Below, one piece after another: positions 1 to 64,000 of a DNA stretch of 64,000 bases. Every line of letters starts with the position of its first letter. The stretch's first letter is position 1. Made by a program: the position numbers and the translations under genes. The notes under the pieces are model-generated. The model was not told where the DNA came from. It saw only the letters and a program-made list of their open reading frames with translations, and ran no database searches. Source of the DNA: Tubulanus polymorphus (lineage: Eukaryota > Animalia > Nemertea). Location of the stretch: assembly GCF_964204645.1 (NCBI RefSeq), contig NC_134027.1, positions 12,928,485 through 12,992,484 on the forward strand, given 5' to 3'.

Positions 1-385
1 GTAAGTACTTGGAAAAGTGGGCTTTCATACCAGAGGTCGTGCGGTCGAGACACCACTCATCACCACAAGTAATAATTCAATTGAGTATGAGACACCACTC
101 ATCACAGCTAGGCTCTAGTGAGAACGGACGATTGCTCTGTGATACACATATACAGTGAGTGCGCGTAACAACATCTGCGCGTGGATAGATCGATACAGTG
201 AGTATCTACTGAGAACGGTTATTAACGCGTGTGCTATTACTGTAGTAGTACAGTGATTGCGTGTCAACTGTACCCGGATAAATAGATGCTGTGAGGCTTG
301 GGTGAGAACGGTTAATAGCGTGTTTGTTATATACAAGGGGAAGTAATCCCCACTCATCACCACAAGTAATTTTTTTTCCTTATAA

Positions 386-712
386 ATGGGAGATAGAAAA
401 GCATTCTTAGCAACAATAAATAACAGAATAAAACCAGCAAAAAAACAATTTGAAATAAAAAAGTTAGTTGATGTTACAAAAGAAATTGAACATAAAATAT
501 TGAAATTAGAAAAGATAAAAACTAAATATGGAGAGAAAGTATCAGCTAATTTAAGCTACTGCAATGGTAGTACATCGCGAGAATTTAAAGTATTTTTACC
601 TGATAAATGGGTTTCATTGAGTACAGAGGAATTAAAAGATTTAGAAGGATTTAAAATAATCTATCATGGAAAAAATGAAGATGGCCATCATGATTTAGAA
701 ATTGTTGATTAA
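386..712 (+). CDS. Small conserved protein, possibly OB-fold ssDNA-binding
   Basis: Homologous to 43412-43753 (TKYG...FLPD.W/F...Y.GKNE.GHHD). The SSB role is an inference from size and the beta-strand-like pattern. Confidence 0.5.
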   Translation: MGDRKAFLATINNRIKPAKKQFEIKKLVDVTKEIEHKILKLEKIKTKYGEKVSANLSYCNGSTSREFKVFLPDKWVSLSTEELKDLEGFKIIYHGKNEDGHHDLEIVD

Positions 713-902
713 ATTTAAAAAAATAAATTAATAAAAATAATGAATATTAAGAATCCGAAACAACTTATCTGGACAAATTAATTGCTCCGCATAGATGGTG
801 CCATAAACAGCACCCACACAGTGATAGACAAAAGTAGTGAGATATTCAATTAATATTCAATTAATTAAAAAAAATTATTTTTTTTGCTTTTTTTCTAAAA
901 TA

Positions 903-1272
903 TTAATCCATTTTTTTTATTATAAATTTTGGAATTTCAGAAGTATTTTCATTTTTAATAGCAGTTGTTTCAGAATTATTAATATCATGAATTTTATTTG
1001 ATTTCTTATACCAATTACACCCAATCGAAATGAATACAATTACAAATCCAACTGTAAAATATAGACATTTATCAAATATTCTATCATTAGAAGGAGTAGA
1101 AATAACAATATTTTCACTATTTTTATTAACATTTTTATTACTTATTTTTTTCTTTTACAGCTTTTTTATATTCTTGTGATTTAATTCCTAATTGCCGAGA
1201 CCATTCAATTTGTTTCTGTGATCTCGGTTTTTTCTTCACAGTTAATTCCTTCACTTCTTCCACCTCGCTCAT
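903..1272 (-). pseudogene. Frameshifted single-TM protein
   Basis: Near-identical to intact ORF 58443-58796 and homologous to 33067-33462; frame broken in a T-run near 1150. Confidence 0.7.
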
Positions 1273-1811
1273 TTATTATAGAAATATTTTTACTTTCAAT
1301 ATTTGAAAATGTTATAACCCCAGTTGATAATAATGTCATAAATCCACCTAATTGAAATGATAAATATCCAATCCATTTATTTAATTCAGTCATAACTAAA
1401 TAATCATTTTTTAAATCGGAATATAATCTATTTTCATCTTCAATTGGTAGTATATAATTACATAATTTACTATAACCTTTTACTACATTTTCTGATATCG
1501 CGTCATTAATTCTAGCTGTTCTTGCGGATTCATAAATCTTAAATAATCTAATAATTTCATCTGATTTCATTGTATCTAATTCATTATAAGTTAAATTTTT
1601 ACCGACAAAATTTTTACATTTTCCAGATGCTATTAATATTTCTAATTGATGTTTACAAATAAAGATAATATTCATAATTATTATTTGTTGTAACATTATT
1701 TAAAGCACCATCATCTGGAATTAATTTGTTTTCTGTTATTCCTAAATCATCTAAAGTTTTTTCAATTGGAACATCACCATTTTTAGATTTTATTTTCTTT
1801 TCACCTACCAT
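1205..1811 (-). pseudogene. Frameshifted conserved ~196-aa protein with hydrophobic C-terminal segment
   Basis: Near-identical to 58744-59334 and homologous to 32469-33074; TAAATG start at 1811. Confidence 0.75.
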
Positions 1812-1842
1812 TTATATAACAAAAAAATTAATTGTGTTGTTG

Positions 1843-2115: not shown

Positions 2116-2724
2116 TTAAATAAATTCATATTTAAATGGGTGTTGTAATCTAAATAGTAATTTTGATCTTTTAATATTTTTCAACTTATCCATATATTCA
2201 TTATGTAAATCATGTGGAATTATATCATTTTCCTCAAGTGCATTTTTCATCGATTTTCTATCTTTATTGTAGAATAAAACTAGAAATCTAATGTTTTCTC
2301 TAAAGTCTTTAACAATTGAATTATATTTTTGATTTAAAACCCAAGTTGTTATCCCAAAATGTCTGCCAGAAAAAGCTAAATAGCATAACTCACTTTCTCT
2401 CACTTTTGAATCATGTAAATTTGCGCAATCATCTATGATAAATAATGTATTTGATCCTTTATAAATATCAATTGCTATTTTTATACAATTATCTAAATTT
2501 TCTTTTACTGTTTTAGGATCTAATATAATAAATTTATTATTTCTAGTAATATTTCTATCATAAGTTTGATTAAATTCATATGTTGGACAAAATAATACTA
2601 TATTATCAAAATAGTTTTTATAAACAGTTTCTAATAAATTTAATATAAAATAAGTTTTTCCACAATTTGTTACACCAGAAATTAACATATTATGAGGCTC
2701 AAATATAAATAATTCCTTATTCAT
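2116..2724 (-). CDS. A32/FtsK-HerA-like genome packaging ATPase
   Basis: Walker A GVTNCGKT, Walker B FIIDD and the A32-type GRH motif (SGRHFGIT...Q). Confidence 0.9.
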   Translation of the reverse strand: MNKELFIFEPHNMLISGVTNCGKTYFILNLLETVYKNYFDNIVLFCPTYEFNQTYDRNITRNNKFIILDPKTVKENLDNCIKIAIDIYKGSNTLFIIDDCANLHDSKVRESELCYLAFSGRHFGITTWVLNQKYNSIVKDFRENIRFLVLFYNKDRKSMKNALEENDIIPHDLHNEYMDKLKNIKRSKLLFRLQHPFKYEFI

Positions 2725-3849
2725 TTATATATTTTTAATTTTACTTGATAATATCCATTCATTGAATTTATCTGGCCATCCAACCCATTTTACTAAAGAA
2801 TATTTTTTTCTTTTAATAGTTTTTGTTTTTAATACTTTTTCAATTTTATATTCTTGTTCTAGATTTTCAATAGTTAAACTCAATTCTTCTTCATAAAAAT
2901 ACCCATCAACTTCTTCACCATCTAAATCTTCTAATTTATAGACATATGGTTTTGTTGTTATTACCTTTTTTTTTATATATATTTCCCTAGTAAAATTTCG
3001 ATCGTATCCCTTGTCAAATATCTTTTTATACTTAGAAATTCTAACATTTTGACCAACTTTAAATTTAGGTTCACCAAAATCATCTACAAGAAATGATCCA
3101 TATAAATAATTCCAAACAATTTCAGCATTTTCAGGTTTTCTAGCATCAATAGGTTTCATTCCAATAGAAGAATGATAAGAATTATTATATTCTTCTATCA
3201 ATTTTGGTAAAACATCAATCCATTTAAAAGTATTATTTGCTGTAAAATATTTCCACATTCTTGTTCTTAATGTTCTATTAAATCGTTCAACAAATGCTGC
3301 TCCTCTATCCGATTTTGTTGAAAAATATTTAATATTATGATTATCTAAGAGTTCATGAACAAGTGAATTATCAAATTCTTTTCCATCATCAAATTGTATT
3401 TTTTCTGGTTTTAGTTTATCATCCGAAAGAAATTTTCTTAAAACATTTGATGTTTGTACAGCATCTTTTCTATAAAGTGGGAAGCTCCATACATAACGAC
3501 TAAAAATATCAATTATATTCAATAACCACCAATAATCATCATTATCTTTCTTAACATTTTTCATATCAATTAAATCTCCTTGCCACTGTTGATCTACATA
3601 ACTTACCATAGTTTTACGAGTTTTATATTTTCTAACAATTTTTTTATGTGTTGTGTATGTTGGTTGTTCTAACATAAATTCATTTATATCTTTATATTTA
3701 ACTAAATTTTGTGGGATTATCTTATCTAATTTATCTTGTTTTACTTGACGCCATATATTTTTGGCAGAAGAATAAGCAACCGAACTCTCAGGGTTGTAAT
3801 ATAAATTTCTTAAATATTGTTCTTTAGTATTAGGAGTTTTTTTTACCAC
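2725..3849 (-). CDS. Retroviral-type (rve) integrase with C-terminal chromodomain
   Basis: WQGDLID, IDIFSRY, QFDDGKEF and VERFNRTL (DDE triad); chromodomain Y.IEKVL...LVKWVGWP..FNEWI. The true start codon is unclear. Confidence 0.92.
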   Translation of the reverse strand: MVKKTPNTKEQYLRNLYYNPESSVAYSSAKNIWRQVKQDKLDKIIPQNLVKYKDINEFMLEQPTYTTHKKIVRKYKTRKTMVSYVDQQWQGDLIDMKNVKKDNDDYWWLLNIIDIFSRYVWSFPLYRKDAVQTSNVLRKFLSDDKLKPEKIQFDDGKEFDNSLVHELLDNHNIKYFSTKSDRGAAFVERFNRTLRTRMWKYFTANNTFKWIDVLPKLIEEYNNSYHSSIGMKPIDARKPENAEIVWNYLYGSFLVDDFGEPKFKVGQNVRISKYKKIFDKGYDRNFTREIYIKKKVITTKPYVYKLEDLDGEEVDGYFYEEELSLTIENLEQEYKIEKVLKTKTIKRKKYSLVKWVGWPDKFNEWILSSKIKNI

Positions 3850-3883
3850 CGATTTATATATCCTTAATTTTAACTTTATATTT

Positions 3884-5062
3884 CTAATATTGAATACTAT
3901 CTAATTGTGAATTTACAATATTTAATTGCGCGTCAGATATAATATAAATGTGCATTTTAAAATTTAAGCTTCCTTTTTTCTTTTTCATGAATAATTGTAT
4001 TCCATCTTTAGTGTGCAGTAGTTTTTTCCCAGAACCATGTAATGAATTATCCTCTGTTGTTCTAAAATCTAATCATAATGCGTATTTATTGCCGGTATAA
4101 TAATCAATTTGATTAATATTACAATTTTCAAATGATTTTACTTTTTCATTCATAAAATGTTTTCTAATTTCTGGCCACTGATCTATCATTCTCATTCCTT
4201 GACAAAATATTTTATTTGGTATTCCTTCGATAGTTATTTCTACTTTTGTTATTTCAGGATTATATTAATTATCTACCTTTATTGCGCCATTAGTATATGT
4301 TGCAATGGTAAAAAATATTAATATAATATCATTTAATAGATATTCTTGGGAAGTTAATATTCTCATTAATTATTTCATCATTTGCATTAATAATTACAGT
4401 TTTAAATTTATCAATATAATCATATAATAATGAAAATCCTTGATTGTATTGTGTTTGAATTGTGCTAGCAATATTTTCATTAGTTACTGTGTCATATTCT
4501 AAACATATATTTGATAATTTATAACCCATATCTTTAACAACGCTAGACAATACAATTTCATTTACAGGAGCAAATGTTATCTCAAATATAATATCTTCTT
4601 GAATTGCGTATTTATATAAAGGTGCATTATTATTTATCAATTCAAAGTCTAATGGAATTTTATATTTGCTTCCATAAATCTTTTTAATCAAATTATCTGT
4701 GGCACGAGTTACTATTGCGTCATTAGCTCCTGATCTTAATTTATTATGGTTTTCCGATTGAATACCCTGAAATATCATATTATTTCTATTTTCAAAATAA
4801 TAGAATTGATTATAATCAAATATCTTCCAACATTATCAACAACATAATTATTATCATGACCAATTACTTTTATATCAGCTGATAAATAAATACTATTTGG
4901 AACATAAAAAGTATTTCGTGTTAATCTAGGAATTCTAACATATAAAGTTTCATCGGGATTAATATTTGAAGGATTATGAGTAATTATATGATGTGATCAT
5001 TCTGCTTTAATAGCATTAGATATTCTAGAAATCTTAGAAGGACTTATATAACTCCCACTCAT
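3884..5062 (-). pseudogene. Degraded major capsid protein gene
   Basis: Collinear with intact ORF 36721-37968, with an internal deletion near 4800 plus frameshifts and stops. Confidence 0.8.
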
Positions 5063-10246: not shown

Positions 10247-11280
10247 ATGGATGAGAAGATACCATGTGAAATTTGTGGTGAACTTCTAGGAAAAAGTAAT
10301 ATGGCTCGACATATGAAAAAACATGATGAAAATTATAAACCCCCTAAACTAAACTGCCCAAAATGTAATAAATCATTCTCAAGAAATTATGTTAAAAAAC
10401 ATTCAGAGAAGTGTAAAATTAATGGCGCAACGGCTAATGTTGATTGTAACGAAAGTAATAGTAATTCTGTTGAAGTTGAACCTGAAGTTATTTGGAAAAG
10501 ACCTTTCTTATTCTATGATAAGGATAATATAAAAGATCATTTCTGTGAGCCTTGTCAAATGAAATATAACCCAGAAGATTGGGAGAATCATCAATTTCGT
10601 AAAGCACATATAGATAAAATTTCTAATAAATTTGAAACTGAATTCAATGAAAGAAAAAATAATTTATTAGAAAAAATAAAATATGAGAAAACGTTACCAG
10701 ATAATAAAGAAACAGTTGAAAAGTTAGAAAAACAATATAATGAATTAACAAGAAAAACATATTATTGTAAATATTGTAAATTGATTATTACAACAAGTAA
10801 TTCAAATCTACATAATAGAACAATAAAACATAAAGAAAACGTAAGAAAATACCAGGAGCTTAATGAAGATCTATTACCAATAAATTATAAACAAAAATGC
10901 CCACAATGTAATTACGCGACCTTAAGACAAGAAGGTACTGTGTTATTTTGTAATGAATGTGGATGGCAAAAGAATTTATGGAGTGAAGAAAAAACTAGAA
11001 ATTTTCTCATAAATTAAATTATCTAGATGAAATTTTTAAAATATTTTCTATAGAAGATCATACACCAGAATATATGCAATGGCTTGAAAAAATGAAAATA
11101 ATAGAAAATAAAAATGGTGAAATAACTAAAAAATATATTATGAAAACAATTATTCCGTCAACATTTAACACAAAACAAAAGAAAATGTATTTATATTTAT
11201 TATTTAACGATTATTATGAAAAACCTAAATTAACAGAAGAAGATATGGAAAATATAAAAAAATATTCAAACAAATATTAA
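10247..11280 (+). CDS. Multi zinc-finger protein; probably one gene with 11074-11280, split by a 5-nt duplication
   Basis: Several CxxC...HxxxH fingers. Removing one AAATT from ATAAATTAAATTATC near 11010 puts the two ORFs in frame. Confidence 0.65.
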
Positions 11281-11561
11281 TGTATCATTTGGAAAATAGA
11301 ATAACAGATTCAATTAATTATGAATTCTTTTTAAATAAGATTGTAAATTATTTAAACATAGATATTATAATTCCATTTGATGAATTCACAAACAAAAAGA
11401 AACAAAGAGAGCGAGATGAAATGTGGAACAAGATAGAACTTTATTTAAATAAGAAAAATGAAATGGAAGAAGAAGCTAAACAAATTATACAAGAACAATT
11501 AAATGAAAATGAAGAAGCCAATAGTGATTTCGATTATGATGATATTGATTTTATGTTTTAA
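11280..11561 (+). CDS. Small acidic hypothetical protein
   Basis: Start overlaps the upstream stop (TAATG); converges on the PolB stop. Confidence 0.5.
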   Translation: MYHLENRITDSINYEFFLNKIVNYLNIDIIIPFDEFTNKKKQRERDEMWNKIELYLNKKNEMEEEAKQIIQEQLNENEEANSDFDYDDIDFMF

Positions 11562-12013
11562 TGTCCATAAGGTAATGTTTTTATACCATCATCTAAAATA
11601 TGCCTTTTATCGTCAAATGGATTTAAACTAGTTTTTTCAACTTCATTAATGTACATCTCATGATCTTCTGATCTTAAACAATTCATTTTGTGTTTCATTA
11701 CAATTGATTTATATAAACACTTTATATAATCTTGAAATTCTATATGTTTATCAACCACGTGTTTTGTTATTCCTTTTGACTTTTTAGCTTCATGATCTTT
11801 TGTTCTATAGCTATACATTTTACTTCTTATCCCAACAAATTCAATCATTTCATCACCCCCTAGTTCATCTTTAAATTTACCAGGAATCTTTTTATTATCA
11901 TTGCTAAATAGTTCATGATCTTTGGGATAATTGCTAAAATCGAAATGATGTTTTAATGTTTTTAAGTCTTTTGTTATGTCATTTGTCTTGATTTTTAGTA
12001 TGTAACTGTCAGT

Positions 12014-13080
12014 ATTGACTGCTATTAATGGAAATCCATAGTTAAATGTACCATCTTCAGTTGATAAATCATAAACATAATCTGATGGGTTATATATTTC
12101 AAATAAATCCTTAACTTCTTCTGTTAACTCATTTTCTACATGGCTTAAATTAAAGCAATTTGGTTTAGATTTAATCAATCCAATATTCATATTAAAACCC
12201 AATGAATTGCATAATATATTCAATCCTGATATAGCAACTTTTCCTTTTTGAGCTAAAGATATCGTTTTGCGGTTTTTGAAACTTTTTGAACCATCTGCTG
12301 CGTAGAATCCAATGAAGAACCATTTTCTTAAATTATTTTTTTTGCATTTAATACATAATCTGGTACTATCTTTTCTTTTGTTGAAGTATTACTTTTCACT
12401 ATTGCATGAATATAGAATTCATCATTATATTTTATAGCAAAATCTTTAGGATTATTTACAAGTATTCTATAAACTGCTGATGATTTCATATGATCCATGA
12501 TTCTAAATGTTTTATGTGAATAAACTTCTTCACAGAATTTCTTAATTCTTTCTAATAATTTTAAGTCTTGATTGCATAAATACCAACAATATTTATTACC
12601 CCAAACATAATTATACACACCTGCTGAACCATCTCCCATGAAAAATCCTTTGATAAAATATTCTTTTTCTTCTAATGTTTCGGGTTCTATGTTATAAATA
12701 TTATCAATTATTTCATCAAATGACATATGATTCATTCTTTGGAAAAATCTTTTATGTAACAATTCATCTCCAATTTTTATATCAGTTGGTTTTATTTCAT
12801 CGCCATTTCGTTTAATAAAACTATGATCTTCTGTAACATCTACAAACCCTAATTTAGTTCTAACTCTATAGATTTTCTTATTTGTTTTATGCCTAATAAT
12901 ATTCTTTAATTTTTTCCATCCATTTCTTGTCCAAACATCCATTAATCCATTTATTTGTATTAATTCTTTTTCACCATATGAAATATAACATTCATTTTGT
13001 TTTGGAATTATTTCTGAAATTCTTCTTATCAATATTTTATCATTACATTTTAATAATATTGGGGTGTCAGCTGTTACAGA
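12014..13080 (-). mobile_element. Intein with LAGLIDADG homing endonuclease in PolB motif C
   Basis: EILYFD|SVTADTPILL...VTEDHS (block B)...FIKGFFMGDGS...FFIGFYAADGS...FPLIAVN|TDSYILK. The element B PolB reads EILYFDTDSYILK with no insert. One frameshift in an A-run near 12340. Confidence 0.93.
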
Positions 13081-20508: not shown

Positions 20509-20603
20509 TCAAGATAACGATTAATGAAAAACTAATTCCTGAAATAATTTGTCCGTTTTATTTAATAAAGATACTTATATTATTATCTACACACATAATT
20601 CAC

Positions 20604-43753: not shown

Positions 43754-43781
43754 TTATTATACAAATTTTTATTGAAATTGA

Positions 43782-47814: not shown

Positions 47815-47894
47815 TTTAATACTATATTTTTTATTAAAATTGATTTTAGAAGTTCAATGATTTAAATGTTATTCATTTATGTGAATATTTTAAG

Positions 47895-48163
47895 AGTAAT
47901 AGGGATAATAGGCTTTCAAGCTAAAGGTTGTACGGGCGGGTGAGTAAAAATGAAAAAACATAAAAATAATTACAATTTCTACTTGAATTAGGAGTGAAAC
48001 TCATAAAATGAAAAATAAATTCGAGCGTGTGAGAATTTATTTTTCATTTTTATGAGTTTCGCGAGTAATTCAAGTAGAAATTGTAATTATTTTTATGTTT
48101 TTTCATTTTTTTACAAGCTCGACCGTTCGACCTTTGGCTTGAAAGCCTATTATCCCTATTACT
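47895..48163. repeat. Terminal imperfect palindrome, right end of element B
   Basis: Near-exact reverse complement of 29582-29849. Confidence 0.92.
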
Positions 48164-48506
48164 TTTATCAAAGGCAGGTGATGGGAAATGTGCCATCATA
48201 CACTCACCTTTGATATATCCCTAGAGTGGGCCAGGCTTTAAAGGGTAACAGGTTCAATGGAAAACCGGTCATTGAATTTGTCAGTCAAGGTTTCAGTTCA
48301 ATCATATTGATATCAAAAGGCTTGTTGTGGATTGACAATTAACATTCCAGTTTATGAACTTATGTTTTATTCATAAGACTACTTCGTTATTCATTTATTC
48401 AGTCCATTAAGTTTTTATATTTTTTGAACAAATAATACATAAAATTGGTGTTTCAGATAAACGATTCAGCTGGTTTCTATCTATATACAGTCAAGTCTAC
48501 AGTCTA

Positions 48507-50979: not shown

Positions 50980-51866
50980 TAACTGAATCTTTCGATTAGA
51001 TGGTGTAGATTAAGTTCTGAGAGTACGACATTCATTGTATTGGAATTTGCGCGGAATTTACCATTTGAGCTCAGACCACTATTCCAAAATCTTCTATATC
51101 CTATGGTAAAAACAAGAAATTCAAACGTTTAGTTCACATATAAGCGCGTAAATTCAGGGGAAATCCTGCGTATGCCTCATAGGCCAGCATCTTAGCTACG
51201 CATTGAAGTGGTTTTCGCCCCATGTACCCAACCTAACTTTTGAAATAATCAAACTTTTAGAAAGGAGGGGTATCCCAGTACAGGTATGCCAGTACATCTG
51301 GACCGAATATAGAAGGGAATGCCCCACCGGGTTTGGTACCCTTACTCCAAGCAAAAAAAGTCCAGGGAATCCCTTATTTCATCATCAATCTGTCTCTCAG
51401 GACCAATGGATTTCATACATATAACCGAAATTCGTTACCTATCCCATTTGCAGAATTATGGCAACATTTATGGAGGACCTCTTTTTCATTTTAGGTACCT
51501 AATTGTGGTCTGATGCCATTTGCTCAACAAGCAATGGGGAATGGACCATGGGGAATCCCTGAGTGTTGCGTCGAAAAGAGCGATATGATTCAATTAAATT
51601 CTAACTTTATTGAATATATAATACCGTGGCGCCACCATACGGTGAACTATGGAACCTTCACGTAAATAAGCTACGTCGTTACAAACTACCCACGTCGCAG
51701 CGAAATAGATGCGATGAAAAGTAGACACGTCGCAAATATACTACGGTGCAGCAATTATCCTACGTCGGAGAAAATATACACCGACGCAAATATACTACGG
51801 CGCAGCAATTATCCTACGCCGTAACAATGGTCATGTTTATTGCATGAATCGCGTTCCATATCACTC

Positions 51867-52816
51867 TGAATACCGAACACCCATTGATTCTCCGCGAATT
51901 CGCGTTCTTCTACAGTGATTGGATCTGAAAGAGGGACAAAACTTTTACGCAGTAACATATTTACAAATCTGTATACACGAAACGTCACTCTCAACAGGTC
52001 ATTCAACGAATTAAAGCTATCAATATCCATAGCCTTATGTATACCGTAACAAGTATTCGATCCAACTGACGTAGCTGTAACAGTAACGAAAGAATTATTT
52101 GCGCAATGAACAGTATCGAAATGAAAATTTGGTAGCCGAGACTCTGATAGCCATGTCGGCCCTTTCCACCATAATTCACACGAAGTAAGAGTATCCGCAA
52201 AAACCCCACGTGAAAGAAGATCTGCAGGATTACTTTCACTGTTACAGTAATGCCAGTATGACATGCATTTAGAGGTCAACCTTCGGATTTCTAAAATCCG
52301 ATTCTTAACAAACGTACTCAATTGTCTATCGGAATTAATCCAGGACAGAACAATTTGGCTATCAGACCAAATATGTGTATCAATATGTAGTCGAGAATCC
52401 ATCGATTCTTTAATGTAAGTAGCCAAACGTGATGCGAGCAAGGCAGCCATGAGTTCCATTTCTGGAATTGTTCTCACTTTGATAGGAGATACCCTATTCT
52501 TAGAAATGACAAATGATGTCTTGCCCTCAACCTTGAGATACCCAACGGCCCCATAGGCTGACTTGCTTGCATCACCGAAAACATGAAGTTCACACTTCTT
52601 ACCGATGATCCCGAAATCAAAATATGCTCTGGGCAAAAAACAACTAGTACTAATAGATAAATCACGTGAAATAACTGCCCATTGATCACGAAGCTCCAAA
52701 GATAAAGGTTCATCCCAGTCAAGACCGGATTTCCACAAATTCTGAGTAAGTTTCTTTGCTAAAATAGTGACTGGAGTAATTAATCCTAGTGGTCCGTAAA
52801 CCCTGGCCGTTTCACT
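51867..52816 (-). CDS. BEL pol segment: RNase H-like region
   Basis: ARVYGPLG, LDWDE, LHVFGDAS..AYG, TIPEMEL, WSDSQI and NPADLLSRG motifs. Confidence 0.9.
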
Positions 52817-53666
52817 CGGTGTTGTCATATCGCGGAAAGACGGAATCGCGGAATTTTCCAAAAACGCGGAATTTCTTCATTTTTACTATAAATAGTAAAC
52901 GGGGTTTTCCCACGGGGATACCCACTGTCGGACAGGGCACCGGACCCAGGTTTTCAACATCGGGAATTAGTATTTGATAATTTATTATATCGCCAGTCAA
53001 CAACTTTACGATACTGTTCCAAATAATGGAGAACCTAGGCAATACGTGCTTTGCGAATTCAGAGATACAGAGTATCGCTGCATTAACTGAAGGAATACAA
53101 ATCGATGGTACGTAAACGTAGGATTTGTGATGACATCATGGGTCATTCTCCAGGACTCATTTCCGAGTTAAGATTTGACTCTGGTCTCTGGATTTAAAAC
53201 ATTGGAAATGAATTGATTCTAAGTAACTGAGAGTTAACTCACAACTGTGGAACTGGATCGATGTCAGACGAAAATAAATTGACATTATGTATATTTCATT
53301 CTGGCTTAGGATTGTTCATGCGTGTTGTGTGTCTACATTGTTGTTATAAGCGAATGTGGTTTATCTTTTAGAATTAAATGATATGAAAGATTATAAAATG
53401 GTTTCCTTTTTTTAATGTTTAGTTTGTGACTGCTATAACATATATGTCCCTATGCTAATTATTTGGATCAAAAGAATCTTATTGGTACCGGTACTGGACG
53501 GCCGTAAAATTATAATAATTTCAAAGGAATTTGAACCGGTACTTGTTTGGTCGTAGGATTTCATGTTTGCAACCATCTACAACTACGGTCCTACACCGCG
53601 AGTAGTTAGGGTATGTCACTATGGTACCGCAGTGGAGTGAGGAGGGAGGAGTGAGGAGGGAGGAGG

Positions 53667-53810
53667 GATGACGTCATACCGGAAGTGACGTCATCCAAGA
53701 TGGCGGCCGGAAGTGACGTCATCCAAGATGGCGGCCGGAAGTGACGTCATCCAAGATGGCGGCCGGAAATGGCGGTTAATATTCAAATTTCAAATTTTTG
53801 GCGGGAAAAT
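53667..53810. promoter_or_regulatory. Tandem ETS-CRE-YY1 motif array plus E2F-like site in mini-Polinton TIR
   Basis: (CCGGAAGTGACGTCATCCAAGATGGCGG) x3 followed by TTTGGCGGGAAA; mirrored x2 at 55630-55750. Confidence 0.65.
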
Positions 53811-53824
53811 TCAAATAGTCACGA

Positions 53825-54069
53825 TCACCGTATTACGTAGATATCCGAAAATACGATGAGCTTTTCGACGTAAATCCGACTAGATGCGGCGTAAAACTAA
53901 CATTGGAACAATGGAAAAAAATTGAAAGACATTAATTTTACAGAAGATATATCCGAACTGGCTAATATGAGACCGTGCTGGTACGATTCGAGTCACTCGA
54001 ATCAGGAATACAGATGCTCGTACTGCGCAAAAGACACAAGCGGGGTTAGAAAGCACCTGAATACGGTAT
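53825..54069 (+). pseudogene. 5'-truncated PC4-like ssDNA-binding gene remnant
   Basis: YVDIRKY...NPTRCGVKLTLEQWKK resembles the PC4 motif VDIR...P..KGISLT.EQW. After a frameshift it continues ...PCWYDSSHSNQEYRCSYC. Confidence 0.55.
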
Positions 54070-56195
54070 AATGATAACCCAAGTATAATTAAAGTAATTT
54101 AAAACCGCTCTGACCAAAAGAGGATTAACTAAAGTAGTGAGTTTCTATATTTTACGAATTTTTATACGTAGCGACTCATTCGTCATCTACCGGATTGTAT
54201 AAATAAAAGCCATAACCCGTGTATATGTATAATATTTTTGGAAAAAAAAAATTTATGTTTTTTAGATGAACGAGTAAATAATAAACTTGCAATGTATATA
54301 ATATTTCATATCTGTCTCATTTTATTCGGATTTACTCTATAATAATCAAGCATTTTGTCGTTGGCCAGACCCCTTGATACAATATATCATCTATGAACGT
54401 AATCAAGTAATTGAGAAACAAATACCATTGACCCATGGTTAGCATCTACCATCTAAAATATCTGGTCAGTACCCTCGATGATATGTGACGGAATATGCAG
54501 GATGAAAATTACGCAATTAAGTAATTGAGAAACAAAAACCATTGACCCGTTGTTAGCATCTGCCGAATAAGTTATTTAGATCAGAGACACAACCGCGATT
54601 GGGGAAATTAAGTATGAGCAAACCAACTATAGTATACCCATTCCGGGTTTGTTGGTTGTTTGTTGATTGACTGACGCGATTAAGCTGTTTGGAAAACCTA
54701 GACTAGTAACAGATGGTTTTCTACGGCGAGTTTATAGAAATATAATTTAGAAAACGACAAAATTCATATACATAATAGTTTATTATAGAAGCTTAAAATA
54801 TTTCACGATAAATTTTTCTTTTACAAAATAATCATTATCATTAGTTTTATTTGACAATAGTTTCGTAATATCGCGTACATCGTTACCGTGACATAGGTGC
54901 AATAGTACAAATATTGCGTAATAACAGAAATACATCGGATAATACGTTTTGATACATCTTATTATTATATTTCCAATCTATGCAATTTTCATCCAAGTAT
55001 TTTTCTAACATTTATCACAAGTTCCGGGTTGTTGCCCGAACGAATCAAAAATAACCGATTCCGTATCCGGTAAACTTTTATTCATTTATCAAAAGTTTTA
55101 ATAATTCAATTTCGTGGTCGATTCCTTGGCGGGTTTTGAATTCTTAACGTCGTGTCAAAATGAGGTCCGCAAATTATTTGAGTAATTGAGTCTATTGGGT
55201 CATGGTGGAGATGGGAAATTATCGAAGGCTGGGATTCCGACATTCCATGTCAAAATGAGTTCCCGGAACTCACTGTTGCTGGGTTTTTGGAAACGCTCGC
55301 CATCGAGGATGGGAATTTGATTATACTGGTGTCCGTTTTGTGCAAATCAATGACATAATAACCCAACATCGCCTATTCTAAGCCGGCTTGAAAATGAGGT
55401 TAAGTGGTTCCCGTGGCTTCAATTCAAAGAAAACAGGTTTTCATCTACTTCAAAATTAAGCCGAAAACAGGGAAATTAACTGTATTTTCCTTATTTGTCG
55501 CATACACCCTTGAATGCGTAAGCGCCATCTAGGATTCAATCATACCAATAAATAAATTTGGATTTAAAACCGCCAATAAATTGATTTGGATTTGTTGTCA
55601 ATAATTTGATTTGGATTTAACGGAAAAATTTTGAATTTTCCCGCCAAAAATTTGAAATTTGAATATTAACCGCCACTTCCGGCCGCCATCTTGGATGACG
55701 TCACTTCCGGCCGCCATCTTGGATGACGTCACTTCCGGTATGACGTCATCCCTCCTCCCTCCTCACTCTTCCCTCCTCACTCCACTGCGGTACCATAGTG
55801 ACATACCCTAACTACTACCGCGAACGTGCTCAATATTTATCTGATAATATTCGCTTCTGAAGTTCTCAAAAAGTCGATGAACTTCGATAACCGAAGTTTG
55901 CCTAGTAGAAATAGACATTAGGTGCCTGGTCTCTTTCACCCCATTTGATTCTGACTTCTTCTACAGGTGGCAGCCAGTCAACGGTATCGTAATATAACAT
56001 TTCCATATAAAATTGCCTGCAAATAATGGGATTCGAACCTAACTCGTTGCATCGATCGGTCCGGTGCGCTGTCCGACAGTGGGTATCCCCGTGGGAAAAC
56101 TCGTTTACTATTTAAAGTAAAAATGAAGAAATTCCGCGTTTTTGGAAAATTCCGCGATTCCGTCTTTCCGCGATATGACAACACCGCGTTTCACT

Positions 56196-57842
56196 GACAA
56201 TCTCTCTCTTCGTAATCAATGGCGTATCGGTAACATCGTGTTTTACCAGCCGTAACGTGTCACCAGAAGTATCCCAGTAGATACCTAAAGTCTTCACAGA
56301 CTGTTTGCCACTCAATACATCATCTTTTAATGCTCTTTGCTTTAAATCTTCGGAATTGGACAGCCACTCACGCAGGTTAAACCCTGCTTCATTGAGTAAT
56401 GCTCTAGAAGTCTCATAGTATTCAATCAACTCAGTATCAGTATCTCTACCTGATAAAACATTATCTACATATAAGCTCTCACGTAAATCTCTAGAAATAT
56501 TACAATCATTTAAACCTAGATGATGTTTAAGTGTTGCATTCAGAATAAAAGGAGAACTTTTGGCTCCAAACAGAACTACGCGAAAACGATAAACAACAAA
56601 CTCACTCTCGGCATCATGTGGATTAGATAGCCACATAAATCTAACATAATCACGATCGTCTTCATGTAGCAGAATATGCAAAAATGCTTTCTCTATATCA
56701 GAGCAAAATCCGTATCGAAATAATCGAAATCTCAAGATAATAGAACAAAGATCGTTTATGAAATTAGGACCCTTGAAAAGACAATCATTAAGACTAGGTT
56801 CTCCAGGCCCTTTACTACAACTACAATCATAGACTACCCTCACGGGGGTTGTCATAGAATCTTTTACGATTGGATGGTGTGGTATATAATGACCAATACT
56901 GGGCGAAACGAATTCTTTGTCAACTAATTCTATAAAACCACGTTTGAGCTGGTCCTGAATAACGGCATCGTAAGTTTGAAGCAAATCAGAATCTAACCTA
57001 CGGATCATTGATCGTGTCCTTGCATAACTAATGTCGTAATTAGATGGAAGCTCGGGGTGTACAGGTTTCCACGGTAAACGTGCTATATAGCGGCCATCGA
57101 TAAATGTACATGTAATAGAATTCTGACAGTACGATTGAAAAATTAGATCGGACTCGGTTTCCGAAATACCTAACGTCTCAAGCTTCCAATAAGTATCTAA
57201 CTCAATTTCTTCTTCTTTATGAGAAGTCACAATGCTCATGATCACAGCTTGGTTTACAGATTCAGACTTACTTACTGGACCCGAAATTACATATCCTAGT
57301 TTCGATCTTACTGCCGTTGGACCATCTCCTCTTCGAATTTCATCTTCAAAAAAAGACCAACATAAATCTGCACCTATAAGTAGTGTTACATCAAATAAAT
57401 CATAATGAGAAATATTGTTAGCTAACTTAAGCCCTTTCAAATACGGATATCTAGACACCGAGTACTGCACACGATTGGCTAGCGGTGTTGCTATTGTAGG
57501 ACAAACTAAAGTACTTATCTGAATGCGTTTTTTATCCAAAGTTACAACGTCAAATTCCACCACACCCATTTTCCTAGTAATGGATTTATCTCCTCCAAAT
57601 CTATTTACACTAATAAACTCTGACCTTACCGGATGCAAACCTAATTTATCAACAAGTGCTCGCGAAACAAATGATCGTGTCGCCCCCTCATCGAAGAGTA
57701 TCAGTGCTTCACCAATAAATTCATTTGTAGGGGAAGCAACGGTAGCAACTGCAGTCTTTAAAAGAACTGCACAATCTGCTGATGTAAAATACTGTTTCAC
57801 TTCTGTGCTTAATTCAGATGCGAAATTACATTGTGAAATATC
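56196..57842 (-). CDS. BEL pol segment: aspartic protease and reverse transcriptase
   Basis: LFDEGATRSF, YIPHHPIVK...RVVYDCS, DIEKAF, FGAKSSPF and LYVDN motifs. Confidence 0.92.
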
Positions 57843-57927
57843 AGTAATTAGGAAATGGCGTTTTCATACCAGAGTACGAGAGTACGAGACACCACTCATC
57901 ACCACAAGTAATTTGTTTTCCTTATAA

Positions 57928-58253
57928 ATGGGAGATAGAAAAGCATTCTTAGCAACAATAAATAACAGAATAAAACCAGCAAAAAACAATTTGAAATAAA
58001 AAAGTTAGTTGATGTTACAAAAGAAATTGAACATAAAATATTGAAATTAGAAAAGATAAAAACTAAATATGGAGAGAAAGTATCAGCTAATTTAAGCTAC
58101 TGTAATGTTAGTACATCGCGAGAATTTAAAGTATTTTTACCTGATAAATGGGTTTCATTGAGTACAGAGGAATTAAAAGATTTAAAAGGATTTAAAATAA
58201 TCTATCATGGAAAAAATGAAGATGGCCATCATGATTTAGAAATTGTTGATTAA
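57928..58253 (+). pseudogene. Frameshifted copy of the 386-712 gene
   Basis: One A fewer in the run near 57981. Confidence 0.75.
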
Positions 58254-58442
58254 ATTTAAAAAAATAAATTAATAAAAATAATGAATATTAAGAATCCGAA
58301 ACAACTTATCTGGACAAATTAATTGCTCCGCATAGATCGTGCCATAAACAGCACCCACACAGTGATAGACAAAAGTAGTGAGATATTCAATTAATATTCA
58401 ATTAATTAAAAAAAATATTTTTTTTGCTTTTTTTCTAAAATA

Positions 58443-58796
58443 TTAATCCATTTTTTTTATTATAAATTTTGGAATTTCAGAAGTATTTTCATTTTTGATA
58501 GCATTTGTTTCAGAATTATTAATATCATGAATTTTATTTGATTTCTTATACCAATTACACCCAATCGAAATGAATACAATTACAAATCCAACTGTAAAAT
58601 ATAGACATTTATCAAATATTCTATCATTAGAAGGAGTAGAAATAACAATATTTTCACTATTTTTATTAACATTTTTATTACTTATTTTTTCTTTTACAGC
58701 TTTTTTATATTCTTGTGATTTAATTCCTAATTGCCGAGACCATTCAATTTGTTTCTGTGATCTCGGTTTTTTCTTCACTTCTTCCACCTCGCTCAT
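58443..58796 (-). CDS. Single-TM protein with basic N-terminus
   Basis: Intact ORF, TAAATG start, homolog in element B. Confidence 0.75.
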   Translation of the reverse strand: MSEVEEVKKKPRSQKQIEWSRQLGIKSQEYKKAVKEKISNKNVNKNSENIVISTPSNDRIFDKCLYFTVGFVIVFISIGCNWYKKSNKIHDINNSETNAIKNENTSEIPKFIIKKMD

Positions 58797-59334
58797 TTAT
58801 TATAGAAATATTTTTACTTTCAATATTTGAAAATGTTATAACCCCAGTTGATAATAATGTCATTAATCCACCTAATTGAAATGATAAATATCCAATCCAT
58901 TTATTTAATTCAGTCGTAACTAAATAATCATTTTTTAAATCAGCATATAATCTATTTTCATCTTCAATTGGTAGTATAAAATTACATAATTTACTATAAC
59001 CTTTTACTACATTTTCTGATATCGCGTCATTAATTCTAGCTGTTCTCGCGGATTCATAAATCTTAAATAATCTAATAATTTCATCTGATTTCATTGTATC
59101 TAATTCATTATAAGTTAAATTTTTACCGATAAAATTTTTACATTTTCCAGATGCTATTAATATTTCTAATTGATGTTTACAATAAAGATAATATTCATAA
59201 TTATTATTTGTTGTAACATTATTTAAAGCACCATCATCTGGAGTTAATTTTGTTTCTGTTATTCCTAAATCATCTAAAGTTTTTTCAATTGGAACATCAC
59301 CATTTTTAGATTTTATTTTCTTTTCACCTACCAT
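58744..59334 (-). CDS. Conserved 196-aa protein
   Basis: Intact ORF, TAAATG start, homolog in element B. Confidence 0.8.
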   Translation of the reverse strand: MVGEKKIKSKNGDVPIEKTLDDLGITETKLTPDDGALNNVTTNNNYEYYLYCKHQLEILIASGKCKNFIGKNLTYNELDTMKSDEIIRLFKIYESARTARINDAISENVVKGYSKLCNFILPIEDENRLYADLKNDYLVTTELNKWIGYLSFQLGGLMTLLSTGVITFSNIESKNISIINERGGRSEEKTEITETN

Positions 59335-59365
59335 TTATATAACAAAAAAATTAGTTGTGATGTTG

Positions 59366-59637
59366 CAACTAGAATTCAACTAGAATGTAACTAGAATTCA
59401 ACTAGATTAACAAGCTAGTTGAAATATTGTTGTTTTTGTTTATTTCTTGTTAAATCTAGTTGATTTTTGTTCCACTTACTAACAACTAGAATTCAATTAG
59501 AATGTAACTAGAATTAAACTAGATTAACAAGCTAGTTAAAATATTGTTAAATCTAGTTGATTTTTGTTACAACTACCAATAACTAGAATTCAACTAGAAT
59601 GTAACTAGAATTCAACTAGATTAACAAGCTAGTTGAA
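59366..59637. repeat. AACTAGAAT tandem repeat block
   Basis: Copy of 1843-2115. Confidence 0.85.
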
Positions 59638-59638
59638 T

Positions 59639-60247
59639 TTAAATAAATTCATATTTAAATGGGTGTTGTAATCTAAATAGTAATTTTGATCTTTTAATAT
59701 TTTTCAACTTATCCATATATTCATTATGTAAATCATGTGGAATAATATCATTTTCCTCAAGTGCATTTTTCATCGATTTTATATCTTTATTGTAGAATAA
59801 AACTAGAAATCTAATGTTTTCTCTAAAGTCTTAAACAATTGAGTTATATTTTTGATTTAAAACCCAAGTTGTTATCCCAAAATGTCTGCCAGAAAAAGCT
59901 AAATAGCATAACTCACTCTCTCTAACTTTTGAATCATGTAGATTAGCACAATTATCTATAATGAATAATGTATTTGATCCTTTATAAATATCAATTGCTA
60001 TTTTAATACAATTATCTAAATTTTCTTTTACTGTTTTAGGATCTAATATAATAAATTTATTATTTCTAGTAATATTTCTATCATAAGTTTGATTAAATTC
60101 ATATGTTGGACAAAATAATACTATATTATCAAAATAGTTTTTATAAACAGTTTCTAATAAATTTAATATAAAATAAGTTTTTCCACAATTTGTTACATCA
60201 GAAATTAACATATTATGAGGCTCAAATATAAATAATTCCTTATTCAT
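59639..60247 (-). pseudogene. Inactivated packaging ATPase
   Basis: Walker A G>D (SDVTNCGKT), Walker B DN, and premature stop at 59831. Confidence 0.85.
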
Positions 60248-61377
60248 TTATATATTTTTAATTTTACTTGATAATATCCATTCATTGAATTTATCTGGCC
60301 ATCCAACCCATTTTACTAAAGAATATTTTTTTCTTTTAATAGTTTTTGTTTTTAATACTTTTTCAATTTTATATTCTTCTTCTAGATTTTCAGTAGTTAA
60401 ACTCAATTCCTCTTCGTAAAAGTAGCCATCAACTTCTTCACTATCTAAATCTTCTAATTTATAGACATATGGTTTTGTTGTTATAACCTTTTTTATTTTA
60501 TATATTTCTCTAGTAAAATTTCGATCGTATCCTTTGTCAAATATCTTTTTATACTTAGAAATTCTAACATTTTGACCAACTTTAAATTTAGGTTCACCAA
60601 AATCATCTACAAGAAATGCTCCATATAAATTATTCCAAACAATTTCAGCATTTTCAGGTTTTCTAGCATCAATAGGTTTCATTCCAATAGAAGAATGATA
60701 AGAATTATTATATCCTTCTATCAATTTTGGTAAAACATCAATCCATTTAAAAGTATTATTTGCTGTAAAATATTTCCACATTCTTGTTCTTAATGTTCTA
60801 TTAAATCGTTCAACAACTGCTGCTTTTCTATCCGATTTTGTTGAAAAATATTTAATATTATGATTATCTAAGAGTTCATGAACAAGTGAATTATCAAACT
60901 CTTTTCCATCATCAAATTGTATTTTTTCTGGTTTTAGTTTATCATCCGAAAGAATTTTTTTTTTTAAACATTTGATGTTTGTACAGCATCTTTTCTATAA
61001 AGTGGGAAGCTCCATACATAACGACTAAAAATATCAATTATATTCAATAACCACCAATAATCATTATTATCTTTCTTAACATTTTTCATATCAATTAAAT
61101 CTCCTTGCCACTGTTGATCTACATAACTTACCATAGTTTTACGAGTTTTATATTTTCTAACAATTTTTTTATGTGTTGTGTATGTTGGTTGTTCTAACAT
61201 AAATTCATTTATATCTTTATATTTAACTAAATTTTGTGGGATTATCTTATCTAATTTATCTTGTTTTACTTGACGCCATATATTTTTAGTAGAAGAATAA
61301 GCAACCGAACTCTCAGGGTTGTAATATAAATTTCGTAAATATTGTTCTTTAGTATTAGGAGTTTTTTTACCACCGAT
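60248..61377 (-). pseudogene. Frameshifted rve integrase with chromodomain
   Basis: ORF pieces 60964-61200 and 60248-60781 match 2725-3849; frame broken in an expanded T-run near 60960. Confidence 0.85.
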
Positions 61378-61407
61378 TTATATATCTTTAATTTTAACTT
61401 TATATTT

Positions 61408-62656
61408 CTAATATTGAATACTATCTAATTGTGAATTTACAATATTTAATTGCGCGTCAGATATAATATAAATGTGCATTTTAAAATTTAAGCTTCCTTT
61501 TTTTCTTTTTCATAAATAATTGTATTCCATCTTTAGTGTTCTGTAGTTTTTTCTCAGAACCATGAAATGAATTATCCTCTGTTGTTCTAAAATCTAACCA
61601 TAATGCGTATTTATTGCCGGTATAATAATCAAATTGATTAATATTACAATTTTCAAATGATTTTACTTTTTCATTCATAAAATGTTTTCTAATTTCTGGC
61701 CATTGATCTATCATTCTCATTCCTTGACAAAATATTTGATTTGCTATTCCTTCGATAGTTATTTCTACTTTTGTTATTTCAGGATTATAATAATTATCAA
61801 CCTTTATTGCGCCATTAGAATATGTTGCAATGGTAAAAAATATTAATATACCATTAAAAGATCTTCTTGGGAAGTTAATATTCTCATTAATTATTTCATC
61901 ATTTGCATTAATAGTTACAGTTTTAAATTTATCAATATAATCATATAATAATGAAAATCCTTGATTGCATTGAGTTTGAATTGTGCTAGCAATATTTTCA
62001 TTAGTTACTGTGTCATATTCTAAACATATATTTGATAATTTATAACCCATATCTTTAACAACGCTAGATGATACAATTTCATTTACAGGAGCAAATGTTA
62101 TCTCAAATATAATATCTTCTTGAATTGCGTATTTATATAAAGGCGCATTATTATTTATCAATTCAAAGTCTAATGGAATTTTATATTTGCTTCCATAAAT
62201 CTTTTTAATCAAATTATCTGCGGCACGAGATACTATTGCGTCATTAGCTCCTGATCTTAATTTATTATGGTTTTCCGATTGAATATCCTGAAATATCATA
62301 TTATTTCTATTTTCTTTAGTTAACCATAAATCTTTATAATGCATAAATAAATTATAATCATCTAATGAGAAAACTGTTTCTGGACCAATCTTTATTGTTA
62401 ACTTTTTAATCAAATACCTTCCAACATTATCAACAACATAATTGTTATCATGGCCAGTTACTTTTATATCAGCTGACAAATAAATACTATTTGGAACATA
62501 AAAAGTATTTTGTGTTAATCGAGGAATTCTAACATATAAAGTTTCATCGGGATTAATATTTGAAGGATTATGAGTAATTATATGATGTGATCTTTCTGCT
62601 TTAATAGCATTAGATATTCTAGAAATCTTAGAAGGACTTATATAACTCCCACTCAT
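61408..62656 (-). CDS. Putative major capsid protein, frameshift near C-terminus
   Basis: 391-aa ORF matching 36721-37968; the tail continues in another frame after a homopolymer near 61500. Confidence 0.75.
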
Positions 62657-62677
62657 TTATTTAACAAAAAAAGTTAA

Positions 62678-64000
62678 TTATTTATTTTTAATCATATTCA
62701 CTAACCCAAAAATAATAGCACTTACAACTGTAATTAAAAATAAAATAATATGTTCAGCAGCAAAGTTAAGAATATTCCCAGCAGATTTCAATATAAAACC
62801 AACAATTGATGCAATAATTCCTGGTAACGCTGCAGCAGATTTTTTAGATAGTTCCCATAAATATTTTGCTAATTTCTTTAAACCATGTTTAACTTTATCT
62901 TGTATAGAATTATTATCATTCGGGTGTTTATCCGGTTTATTGGGAGTAGGAGTAGATTTCAAAGCATTTGATATTGCTAAACCAATTGTTGTAAATAACA
63001 TAGTTACAGCTGTTAGAATTGAAAGAATTGTTATTCCTTCTAATTTAAATAATAACTTTATTCTATCTTTCAATGATATTTCAGAATTTGGTTTTATCAA
63101 TAAATCTTTGAAAATAACTTTTAATCTATTAATATTATAATCATATGATTTTAATAATAATTTAATTTCTTCTTTTTGTAATTCTATGTTATATCCTAAA
63201 TAATCTTTTTCTTTTTCTAAACGTAATTCTTTTTGCCTATATTCTTTACTATTTATTTCATCAATTACTTGATGATCTAAATCAGACTTTAATTGTTCTA
63301 TTTCTTTATTTTTATCAGTTAATTCTTTTTCTAAAGTTCTAATTTTAAAATCTCTTATACTTTTATCATGCGCAATTTTATCAGATGCAAGTCTTATACT
63401 TTTAATTTCTCTAATTGCTTCAACAGAAAATATATTATTTAAATCTTCTAATTGTTGATCTGTTGCATCAATTAATCCATTCGGTAAAAGTTTTTCAATT
63501 GGAACTTTATTTGATTTAAGTTTACTAGTTTTGGAAGTTATATTCTGTTCAGAAGTAGTTTCTGTTTCTGATTTCTTTTTGATTATTTCAAATAATTCAT
63601 TAATTCTTTGTTTAAATACGTCTATATCATTATTAGTTAATTCTTGTTTTATAACATCAGTTATTACATTACTATTACTAATTCTTTTAATTCTATCTGG
63701 ATCTAATTTTCTCAAAGTTAATTTTGTTATTATTTTTTTTAATAAGTGATATCAATATAATAATCATCTTTCAAACGATAATAACATTTACCATTATCTA
63801 AAAATTTTAATCGATCTGCTAAAAGTCCAACGTCTTCATCATTTATGTTAAGTTTAGATTTTTCAATTAAATCTTCTAATTTAGTTATTTTGTTTAAATT
63901 ATCTAAATTTTCTCTTTCTAAACCTGGGTCTAAATTTTCAGGATTTATTCTCGATCTCTTTCTTCTATCAAATTCATCTGTTGATAGGCCTTTAGAACCA
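62678..64000 (-). pseudogene. Partial coiled-coil/three-TM protein
   Basis: C-terminus matches 38013-39725 and 5097-5534; runs off the window. Confidence 0.7.

Follow-up and report, generated by a model that had tools for sequence, protein, structure and literature searches.

Polinton-like viruses (PLVs) linked to entomopoxviruses, namely AHEV_PLV1/2 and CBEV_PLV1, are known in insects (PMC11296320), and elements from octocorals, hydrozoans and bivalves fall outside Maverick groups 1 and 2 (bioRxiv 2026.06.19.733378; for Polinton-3_NV and N1A_NV, PMC11296320). Animal Polintons might be nuclear elements that act autonomously, or they might live as satellites of large viruses; the only printed link to poxviruses that we found is co-packaging in insect occlusion bodies. 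In vaccinia virus, the late promoter has the consensus T-N9-TAAATG (PMC11423596), in which the conserved T is the 10th nucleotide upstream (PMC11980589), and A2 is a late transcription factor (PMC5294985). Homologues of the late factors VLTF2 and VLTF3 are stated to be undetected outside Nucleocytoviricota (PMC11253617). Here we describe a stretch of 64,000 nucleotides from the nemertean Tubulanus polymorphus (contig NC_134027.1, positions 12,928,485 to 12,992,484; called the window below), which contains three Polinton-like proviruses, nearly all of whose genes begin with a two-part signal very similar to that of vaccinia late genes.

4-22066: element 1, Polinton-like provirus with both ends kept, many frameshifts and stops, split by a 5.4-kb transposon
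29582-48163: element 2, full-length 18.6-kb Polinton-like provirus with target-site duplication (TSD) TTTATC
57842-64000: element 3, left portion of a copy that shares 97% identity with element 1, broken, running past the window end

The initial annotation had described three AT-rich, intronless elements encoding integrase and capsid, with poxvirus-late-like gene starts. The first part holds for the elements with the corrected bounds given above, on the basis of their GC content (0.23-0.24), their uninterrupted frames, Pfam matches and AlphaFold/Foldseek comparison. The second is also borne out: the signal has two parts, is restricted to a clade, and lies within one base of the vaccinia spacing.

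A two-part signal at the gene starts

TAAATG is found at 14 of the 16 gene starts of element 2, compared with 48 of 741 other ATGs (6%; Fisher p 1.5e-14). The two remaining starts are those of the integrase (TAAGATG) and of the family B DNA polymerase, PolB (TAAAATG). The complete signal consists of a core of A and T only from -18 to -13, a T at -12, an 8-nt spacer and TAAATG, and is therefore T-N8-TAAATG, one base shorter in its spacing than the vaccinia late consensus. It was characterised in 76 TAAATG gene starts from close-relative loci and elements 1 and 2, which are not independent of each other, since orthologues and near-identical loci are among them. G and C are nearly absent from positions -18 to -12 of these starts, and T is present at -12 in 72 of the 76, against about 37% of 168 TAAATG sequences that do not start genes. 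The signal is kept in 14 metagenome loci with capsid identity of at least 50%, and TAAATG persists at a GC content of 0.36-0.44 (7/9 starts in L006-L008).

The full pattern occurs at 27 sites in elements 1 and 2, of which 24 are gene starts. Element 2 has 14 sites (12 gene starts), element 1 has 13 (12 gene starts, several of them of broken genes), and element 3 has a further 2. There are no sites in the two intervening host-side stretches that were scanned. A division into two promoter classes, corresponding to the intermediate and late promoters of vaccinia, was considered and dropped: the A-rich variant has a spacer of 9-10 nt, compared with 14 in the vaccinia consensus, and a single matrix fits both.

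The motif could be a by-product of AT richness and tight gene packing, arising from stop-start overlap or from an upstream poly(A) signal, in which case the elements would be ordinary nuclear Polintons. TAA-ATG can serve translational coupling, and AATAAA is contained in AATAAATG, the sequence seen at about half of the starts. However, only 3 of the 66 starts with a known neighbour abut an upstream stop, while 17 follow a divergent gene, 12 of these across only 19-30 nt; T is present at -12 in 18/18 divergent starts; and the motif persists at GC 0.44 but is rare in equally AT-rich and compact controls (1/10 in L166, GC 0.22; 2/9 in L165, GC 0.26). This explanation is largely refuted, and we regard it as very improbable. 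It is concluded that the start signal is, as judged from its sequence, a real promoter-like motif, which is not explained by AT content or by stop-start overlap.

In a capsid tree (FastTree, midpoint root) the TAAATG loci form one clade of 19 of the 100 tips, with Shimodaira-Hasegawa support of 0.986. In the sister loci L015 and L017-L025, TAAATG is found at 3 of 69 open reading frames (ORFs), the counts for L021-L023 including flanking host ORFs. In the sister lineages L017 and L019-L024 the starts are AT-rich but looser (TATACAATG, TAAAATG, TAATAATG), and genes paired head to head share 30-40 nt. Some of the capsid and polymerase relatives (L019-L025, P0045, P0154) are labelled as bacteria or archaea, which is probably due to eukaryotic contamination.

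Other groups served as controls. In 15 virophage or PLV loci that carry a protein-primed PolB (pPolB), TAAATG is present at 11/142 ORFs, and a decayed canonical animal Maverick (L160), the sole control of its kind, has 0/11. Contigs chosen for one exact copy of the motif, which are rich in giant viruses and many of them prasinovirus-like, have TAAATG elsewhere at 33/155 ORFs, 7 of these with T at -12. In four giant-virus bins that encode an RNA polymerase the count is 15/84 (3/25, 6/29, 3/23 and 3/7), 4 with T at -12. The pitho-like bin G001 was considered as a model of the helper, and rejected: its starts are mostly AAAATG. TAAATG on its own is thus not specific to poxviruses, but among the sets compared this capsid clade was the sole one to combine near-universal TAAATG with a T at a fixed upstream position.

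Proposed transcription by a helper and its alternatives

We think it somewhat probable that the RNA polymerase which reads the start signal comes from a cytoplasmic helper virus of poxvirus type, and not from the host. The initial annotation had noted that no RNA polymerase is recognisable in the elements, and this remains so: no RNA polymerase subunit was found among the ORFs scanned in the window and its relatives. Element 1 contains a gene that bears directly on the question:

10247-11561, + strand: gene with zinc finger, zinc ribbon and likely VLTF3 (poxvirus A2-family) domain, broken into three frames, with a TAAATG start and T at -12

The last of the three frames matches Pfam Pox_VLTF3 (PF04947) with E 1.7e-4 and 21.8 bits, which is below the curated cut-off of 25. 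Against a profile of four giant-virus VLTF3 proteins, the three frames are colinear at model positions 4-44 (the zinc ribbon), 93-145 and 161-222, and the last frame ranks first of 1834 segments, although with E 0.15. Pairwise comparisons with VLTF3 and comparisons with a 2-sequence profile are not significant, and the frame has no relative in the PDB. A scan for VLTF3 identified 8 loci, 7 of them near-identical. The region is at high depth in sequencing runs, and the close relative L001 carries a homologous N-terminal part, interrupted by the contig end; element 2 lacks the gene. The gene probably encodes a VLTF3-type late transcription factor. On this assignment it links the family to giant-virus late transcription, and a VLTF3-like gene in a Polinton would break the stated limit of VLTF3 to Nucleocytoviricota. 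It nevertheless argues in either direction, since mriyaviruses have VLTF3 but no RNA polymerase.

Words associated with the ends of transcripts were counted, and compared with expectations from synonymous-codon shuffles of the coding strands. In intact relatives TTTTTNT is found 12 times, against 37.4 expected. Among the AT-rich intact relatives, TTTTT-V-T (7 observed, 15.0 expected) and T6 (4, against 13.2) are depleted, while TTTTT-V-V (28, against 29.2) and AATAAA (135, against 134.9) are as expected. The sister lineages differ in that TTTTTNT is kept but AATAAA is depleted (13, against 25.6 expected), AATAAA and ATTAAA being at about half. The contrast between the lineages fits a difference between cytoplasmic and nuclear transcription, as far as word counts can suggest one.

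An autonomous nuclear virus would need no helper if its own VLTF3-like factor, acting in trans for subfamilies that lack the gene, steered host RNA polymerase II (Pol II) to the TAAATG promoters, as is assumed to happen in mriyaviruses. The likely VLTF3 gene in element 1 speaks for this, as do the mriyaviruses, which have VLTF2 and VLTF3, have no RNA polymerase, and are thought to be nuclear (PMC11253617). TAAATG starts are also fairly common in prasinovirus-like contigs, the family is high in copy number, and element 2 contains a CpG-rich region with nuclear-type sites (below). On the other hand, element 2 has the same promoters without the VLTF3-like gene, and no match to VLTF2, TBP or TFIIB was found in 38 further ORFs scanned. 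On the coding strands AATAAA is not depleted, at about 5-6 per kb, whereas the sister lineages deplete this word. It is also well established that a TATA box abutting the ATG would put the Pol II start inside the gene. We consider it unlikely that the elements direct Pol II in this way.

Two regions of the window have a more nuclear appearance:

30020-31577: CpG-rich non-coding stretch of element 2, with NRF1-, E-box- and CRE-like sites and tandem units
53601-55816: non-autonomous mini-Polinton of another family, with AGTAGT ends, TSD ACCGCG and a PC4 remnant

The first of these, about 1.5 kb long, has an observed/expected CpG ratio of 1.45, compared with 0.52 in the element-2 genes. Its NRF1-like and E-box sites exceed those in 300 shuffles, partly owing to the tandem units, and it is a possible nuclear control region, to judge by these sites. 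The mini-Polinton had been offered in the initial annotation as an internal contrast, with typical nuclear sites. It contains 5 YY1-, 6 ETS- and 7 CRE-type sites (as we take these motifs to be), which are repeated and none of which is present in elements 1-3. The contrast is real, but it is limited to the terminal repeats of a gene-less element from another family.

Two genes had been thought to show a giant-virus connection, namely a PolB intein described as giant-virus-style, and an HNH gene of nucleocytoplasmic large DNA virus (NCLDV) type:

12014-13080, - strand: PolB intein at motif C of element 1, with a LAGLIDADG-type nuclease, frameshifted; absent from element 2
31578-32243, + strand: zinc-finger HNH / endonuclease VII-type nuclease of element 2

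The intein is genuine, although confined to element 1. Its junctions are YFD/S...N/TDS, while most of its relatives sit after YGD, and it matches TIGR01445 with E 9.9e-8. Its closest relatives are inteins of other protein-primed polymerases (46-62% identity), with which it also groups in a tree, followed by those of RNA-primed family B polymerases (about 30-43%). Three RNA-primed intein-bearing polymerases that were tested are closest to DNA polymerase delta, and not to poxvirus polymerases. Thus its nearest kin are pPolB inteins and then pol-delta-like ones. One weak match was found in IMG/VR. Motif-C inteins are also present in the protein-primed polymerases P0161, P0168, P0163 and P0417-P0420, two of which fall in clusters of 136 and 121 members. 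The HNH gene is likewise present, and the best 4 of its 80 kept viral matches are giant-virus contigs, but most of the others resemble large phages in the contexts sampled, so that the label of NCLDV type fits it only in part. Neither the intein nor the HNH gene names the helper.

These results bear on the suggestion that the helper is a giant virus other than a poxvirus (asfu-, ego-, pitho/irido- or mimi-like), with a late promoter of TAAATG type. Pol-delta-like polymerases carry the intein family at the identical motif-C position, and one of their clusters is labelled as viral metagenome; the best HNH matches adjoin a giant-virus capsid gene; and VLTF3 is found throughout Nucleocytoviricota (PMC11253617). 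By contrast, the four giant-virus bins, which include no asfu- or egovirus, rarely have T at -12 and show no TTTTTNT depletion, and the late motifs TCTA of CroV (Cafeteria roenbergensis virus) and the TATA-type motif of ASFV (African swine fever virus) differ from TAAATG (PMC5294985). We regard a helper of this kind as distinctly unlikely.

If the helper is of poxvirus type, the cycle could be as follows. Intact copies or free genomes would reach the cytoplasmic factory of the helper, whose late transcription machinery would initiate in TAAAT to give mRNAs that are near-leaderless or have a poly(A) leader. Starting at the termini, the pPolB would replicate the linear genome, and packaging would fall to capsid, penton and ATPase. 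Particles would then enter other cells, including germ-line precursors, where the chromodomain integrase would place the genome in repeat-rich chromatin and a 6-bp duplication would result. In the element-1 subfamily, the VLTF3-like protein may help to recruit the late factors of the helper, or interfere with them.

Several observations weigh against a poxvirus-type helper. The spacing of the signal differs by one base from that of vaccinia, and TAAATG is present at a fifth of the ORFs (33/155) in giant-virus-rich contigs. The affinities of the intein and of the HNH gene are with pol-delta-like polymerases, chlorovirus-like contigs and phages, and not with poxviruses. VLTF3 is carried by mriyaviruses, described as nuclear viruses lacking RNA polymerase (PMC11253617). 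The word counts are small and come from related loci; among the copies in the window, depletion is limited to T6 (TTTTT-V-T 13, against 15.8 expected); and in 15 control loci T6 is depleted to 0.63, with AATAAA undepleted. TTTTTNT is not enriched after stops (7/55), and a role as terminator behind the genes, which we had considered, is unsupported. Moreover, avoidance of TTTTTNT is unexpected in late-type genes, because in poxviruses it terminates early genes (PMC11423596). The sequencing depth over element 2 (below) means repeated germ-line insertion, which is harder to achieve under strict dependence on a helper, and its nuclear-looking region at 30020-31577 cautions against taking the element to be fully silent to Pol II. 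Finally, no helper sequence was found, and we know of no helper RNA polymerase for this host.

More tentatively, and with less than even probability, a widespread clade of animal Polinton-like viruses may have given up nuclear Pol II in favour of cytoplasmic transcription of poxvirus type. All promoters would have been rewired, selection against poly(A) signals dropped, the pox terminator avoided, and VLTF3 captured to commandeer or jam the helper; the high-copy proviruses would be inherited, inducible satellites that betray an undiscovered poxvirus lineage of non-arthropod invertebrates. An antiviral role, in which the elements protect the host, is doubtful, and by themselves the three broken copies in the window would be incapable of it. 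If a poxvirus-type helper does the transcribing, a virus of that type is to be expected in this host group, and a short clade-specific promoter provides a sequence rule by which other Polintons may be sorted according to their likely polymerase.

Gene content and layout of the window

The remaining features of element 2 are as follows.

29582-30018: left terminal inverted repeat (TIR), carrying a copy of the PolB start
33469-34554, + strand: rve integrase with C-terminal chromodomain (Pfam), one in-frame stop
34547-35161, + strand: A32-type packaging ATPase (Pfam Pox_A32, E 7.5e-12)
35555-36688, - strand: orf377 zinc-finger protein, confined to the element-2 subfamily
36721-37968, - strand: double-jelly-roll major capsid protein, open frame of 415 aa
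38013-42624, - strand: conserved gene block of 570, 405, 146 (SLATT-like), 140, 73 and 115 aa, each with a two-part TAAATG start
42641-43396, - strand: likely minor capsid (penton) protein
43782-47814, - strand: pPolB with N-terminal zinc fingers and an endonuclease VII insert, broken near 44612-44672, no intein
47726-48163: right TIR

The TIRs of element 2 are 437 nt long and 99% alike. The first 268 nt of each (29582-29849 and 47896-48163) form a long imperfect hairpin of about -100 kcal/mol (DNA parameters), which repeats the terminal 27 nt in reverse; there is no such fold in the short TIR of element 1. Between the convergent ATPase and orf377 genes, the spacer at 35162-35554 forms an extended inverted repeat whose arms flank a 13-nt tandem array, a possible terminator or origin.

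The structure of the 415-aa capsid protein was predicted by AlphaFold with a predicted local distance difference test (pLDDT) score of 86, and its Foldseek matches are double-jelly-roll capsids at 8-14% identity. It has no Pfam match. Its 908 homologues fall into a tight group at 50-77% identity and a broad one at 35-40%, with a bivalve protein among the latter; no relatives of capsid or ATPase were found in IMG/VR. Among the relatives of PolB are proteins from abalone and octocoral, at 36-37% identity. The assignment of 42641-43396 (orf251) as minor capsid comes from a profile match to a same-sized gene in the virophage-like loci L168 (E 1.8e-9) and L157; its fold predicted from the single sequence without alignment is poor (pLDDT 34), and its profile matched nothing in the PDB. 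The conserved gene at 41147-41587 encodes a small two-helix membrane protein with weak SLATT-domain matches, a class tied to antiviral systems (bioRxiv 2026.10.13.758929). In L001, a deoxynucleoside kinase (10343-10981; Pfam dNK, E 2e-31) is located behind the same TAAATG signal.

Element 1 has a similar set of genes, and is interrupted by a later transposon.

386-712, + strand: small gene, homologue of element-2 orf113, TAAATG start
2116-3900, - strand: rve and chromodomain integrase (start region broken), with A32 ATPase directly after
3887-5062, - strand: major capsid gene, in several frames
11558-16560, - strand: pPolB, several frames, start codon at 21980 in the right TIR, beyond the inserted transposon
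~16540-21942: THAP transposon, with TTAA duplication, THAP domain and a P2RX7_C-type second gene

The orf113 homologue presumably has a single-strand DNA binding role. We take the 5.4-kb transposon to be Kolobok-like; its empty site was found in sequencing run X1. The TIRs of element 1 are at 4-73 and 21973-22066, with 99% identity between 4-73 and 21996-22065. These last two segments were at one stage read as Pao long terminal repeats, which was dropped, both being TIRs of element 1. The right flank is GTAGTA and the left flank ends in GTA, giving a partial TSD.

The window consists of AT-rich blocks of GC about 0.23, alternating with blocks of 0.35-0.44. Its layout, resolved by self-alignment and inspection of element ends, is a nest within two further transposable elements:

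22067-57841, - strand: Pao/BEL retrotransposon, with reverse transcriptase 56112-57569, peptidase A17 51809-52828 and integrase 22257-23525, split by later insertions
23749-51860: TIR transposon with 297-nt TIRs, TATGG ends, TSD TCACTC, and genes for a HECT-like ubiquitin ligase and an rva_4 integrase

The second of these is presumably IS3EU-like. It lies inside the Pao/BEL retrotransposon and itself contains element 2, and the mini-Polinton sits in a short TIR element that is also inside the retrotransposon. None of the three Polinton-like copies is intact: in element 2 the breaks lie in PolB and integrase, and in elements 1 and 3 they affect many genes.

The joint of the empty site of element 2 (29575-48164) is present in sequencing runs X1, X2 and X3 (2 samples from 1 study), and the insertion is therefore polymorphic. 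Summed contig depth, which is not a copy number, is 2-3 orders above that of the flanks over most of element 2 (in X1, about 170 in the flank and 2,500-200,000 in element bins), and points to a high-copy family. In run X4, which may be RNA, hardly anything aligned to element or flanks, a result that carries no information on expression. Three copies within 64 kb therefore need no special clustering. The initial annotation spoke of a cluster; the three copies are there, but they amount to a nest in one Pao retrotransposon.

Classification and comparison with known systems

By the structure predicted from their sequence, the elements are Polintons. They have TIRs with AG-type ends and a 6-bp TSD, pPolB and rve integrase, together with the morphogenesis set of double-jelly-roll capsid, A32 ATPase and, by a weak profile match, minor capsid. 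The adenovirus-type protease that characterises Polintoviricetes (Maverick 1/2, adintovirus) was not found: there is no Peptidase_C5 match in the element-2 proteins scanned, and the same library weakly flags one in control L157. Structures named as adintovirus rank low among the Foldseek matches of the capsid. The capsid profile matches 0/142 ORFs from the 15 pPolB-bearing virophage or PLV loci, and the mavirus capsid ranks 36th in the PDB Foldseek comparison, at 10% identity. By capsid, then, the elements are not true virophages (Virophaviricetes), and no protease was found. The description of them as virophage-like can apply to their lifestyle at best, and not to the capsid family. The named relatives of the family are from bivalve, abalone and octocoral, and we infer an affinity with the animal aquintovirus-like PLV lineage from published papers, gene content and the host names of relatives at 36-38% identity.

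A literature search, limited to texts without supplements, found no published account of poxvirus-type promoters or of VLTF3 in animal Polintons. In main-text term searches, 'promoter' is absent from the coral survey, the 2026 PLV framework, the PNAS capsid paper and Buck 2024, and both 'promoter' and 'TAAAT' are absent from the text of Barth et al. 2024 (PMC11296320).

The entomopoxvirus PLVs are, like the present family, small capsid-encoding Polinton-like elements of animals, and have been proposed as poxvirus parasites (PMC11296320). They are described as about 12 kb long, with a cysteine protease and no rve integrase, and as present in occlusion bodies (PMC11296320). Compared by description, the window family differs in its length of 16-19 kb, its rve-chromo integrase, the lack of a detected protease, its high-copy proviruses and its promoter evidence. 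Mavirus and endogenous mavirus-like elements share with it pPolB and rve integrase, AT richness and integration, and Mavirus also has one short motif ahead of most genes, matching the late promoter of its large virus (PMC8547959). In the window family, which is known from sequence alone, the capsid is not of virophage type, no protease was found, the host is an animal, and the motif is TAAATG instead of TCTA.

Gezel-14T/PgVV and the animal aquintovirus-like PLVs have a similar protease-less PLV architecture, and Gezel likewise shares the promoter of its helper, although in its case this is a mimiviral early motif, and the recombinase is a tyrosine recombinase (bioRxiv 2022.07.28.501842). Mriyaviruses are also small viruses with VLTF3 and without RNA polymerase, but they have no DNA polymerase and carry VLTF2, RuvC and an HUH endonuclease (PMC11253617). 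The VLTF3-like gene described here is found, unlike theirs, in a Polinton-type element. The closest resemblance in the signal itself is to the late promoters of vaccinia, which also have TAAATG over the start codon and a conserved upstream T in a T-rich core (PMC11980589, PMC11423596). The T lies 9 nt before TAAAT in the sequences of the window family, and 10 nt before it in vaccinia.

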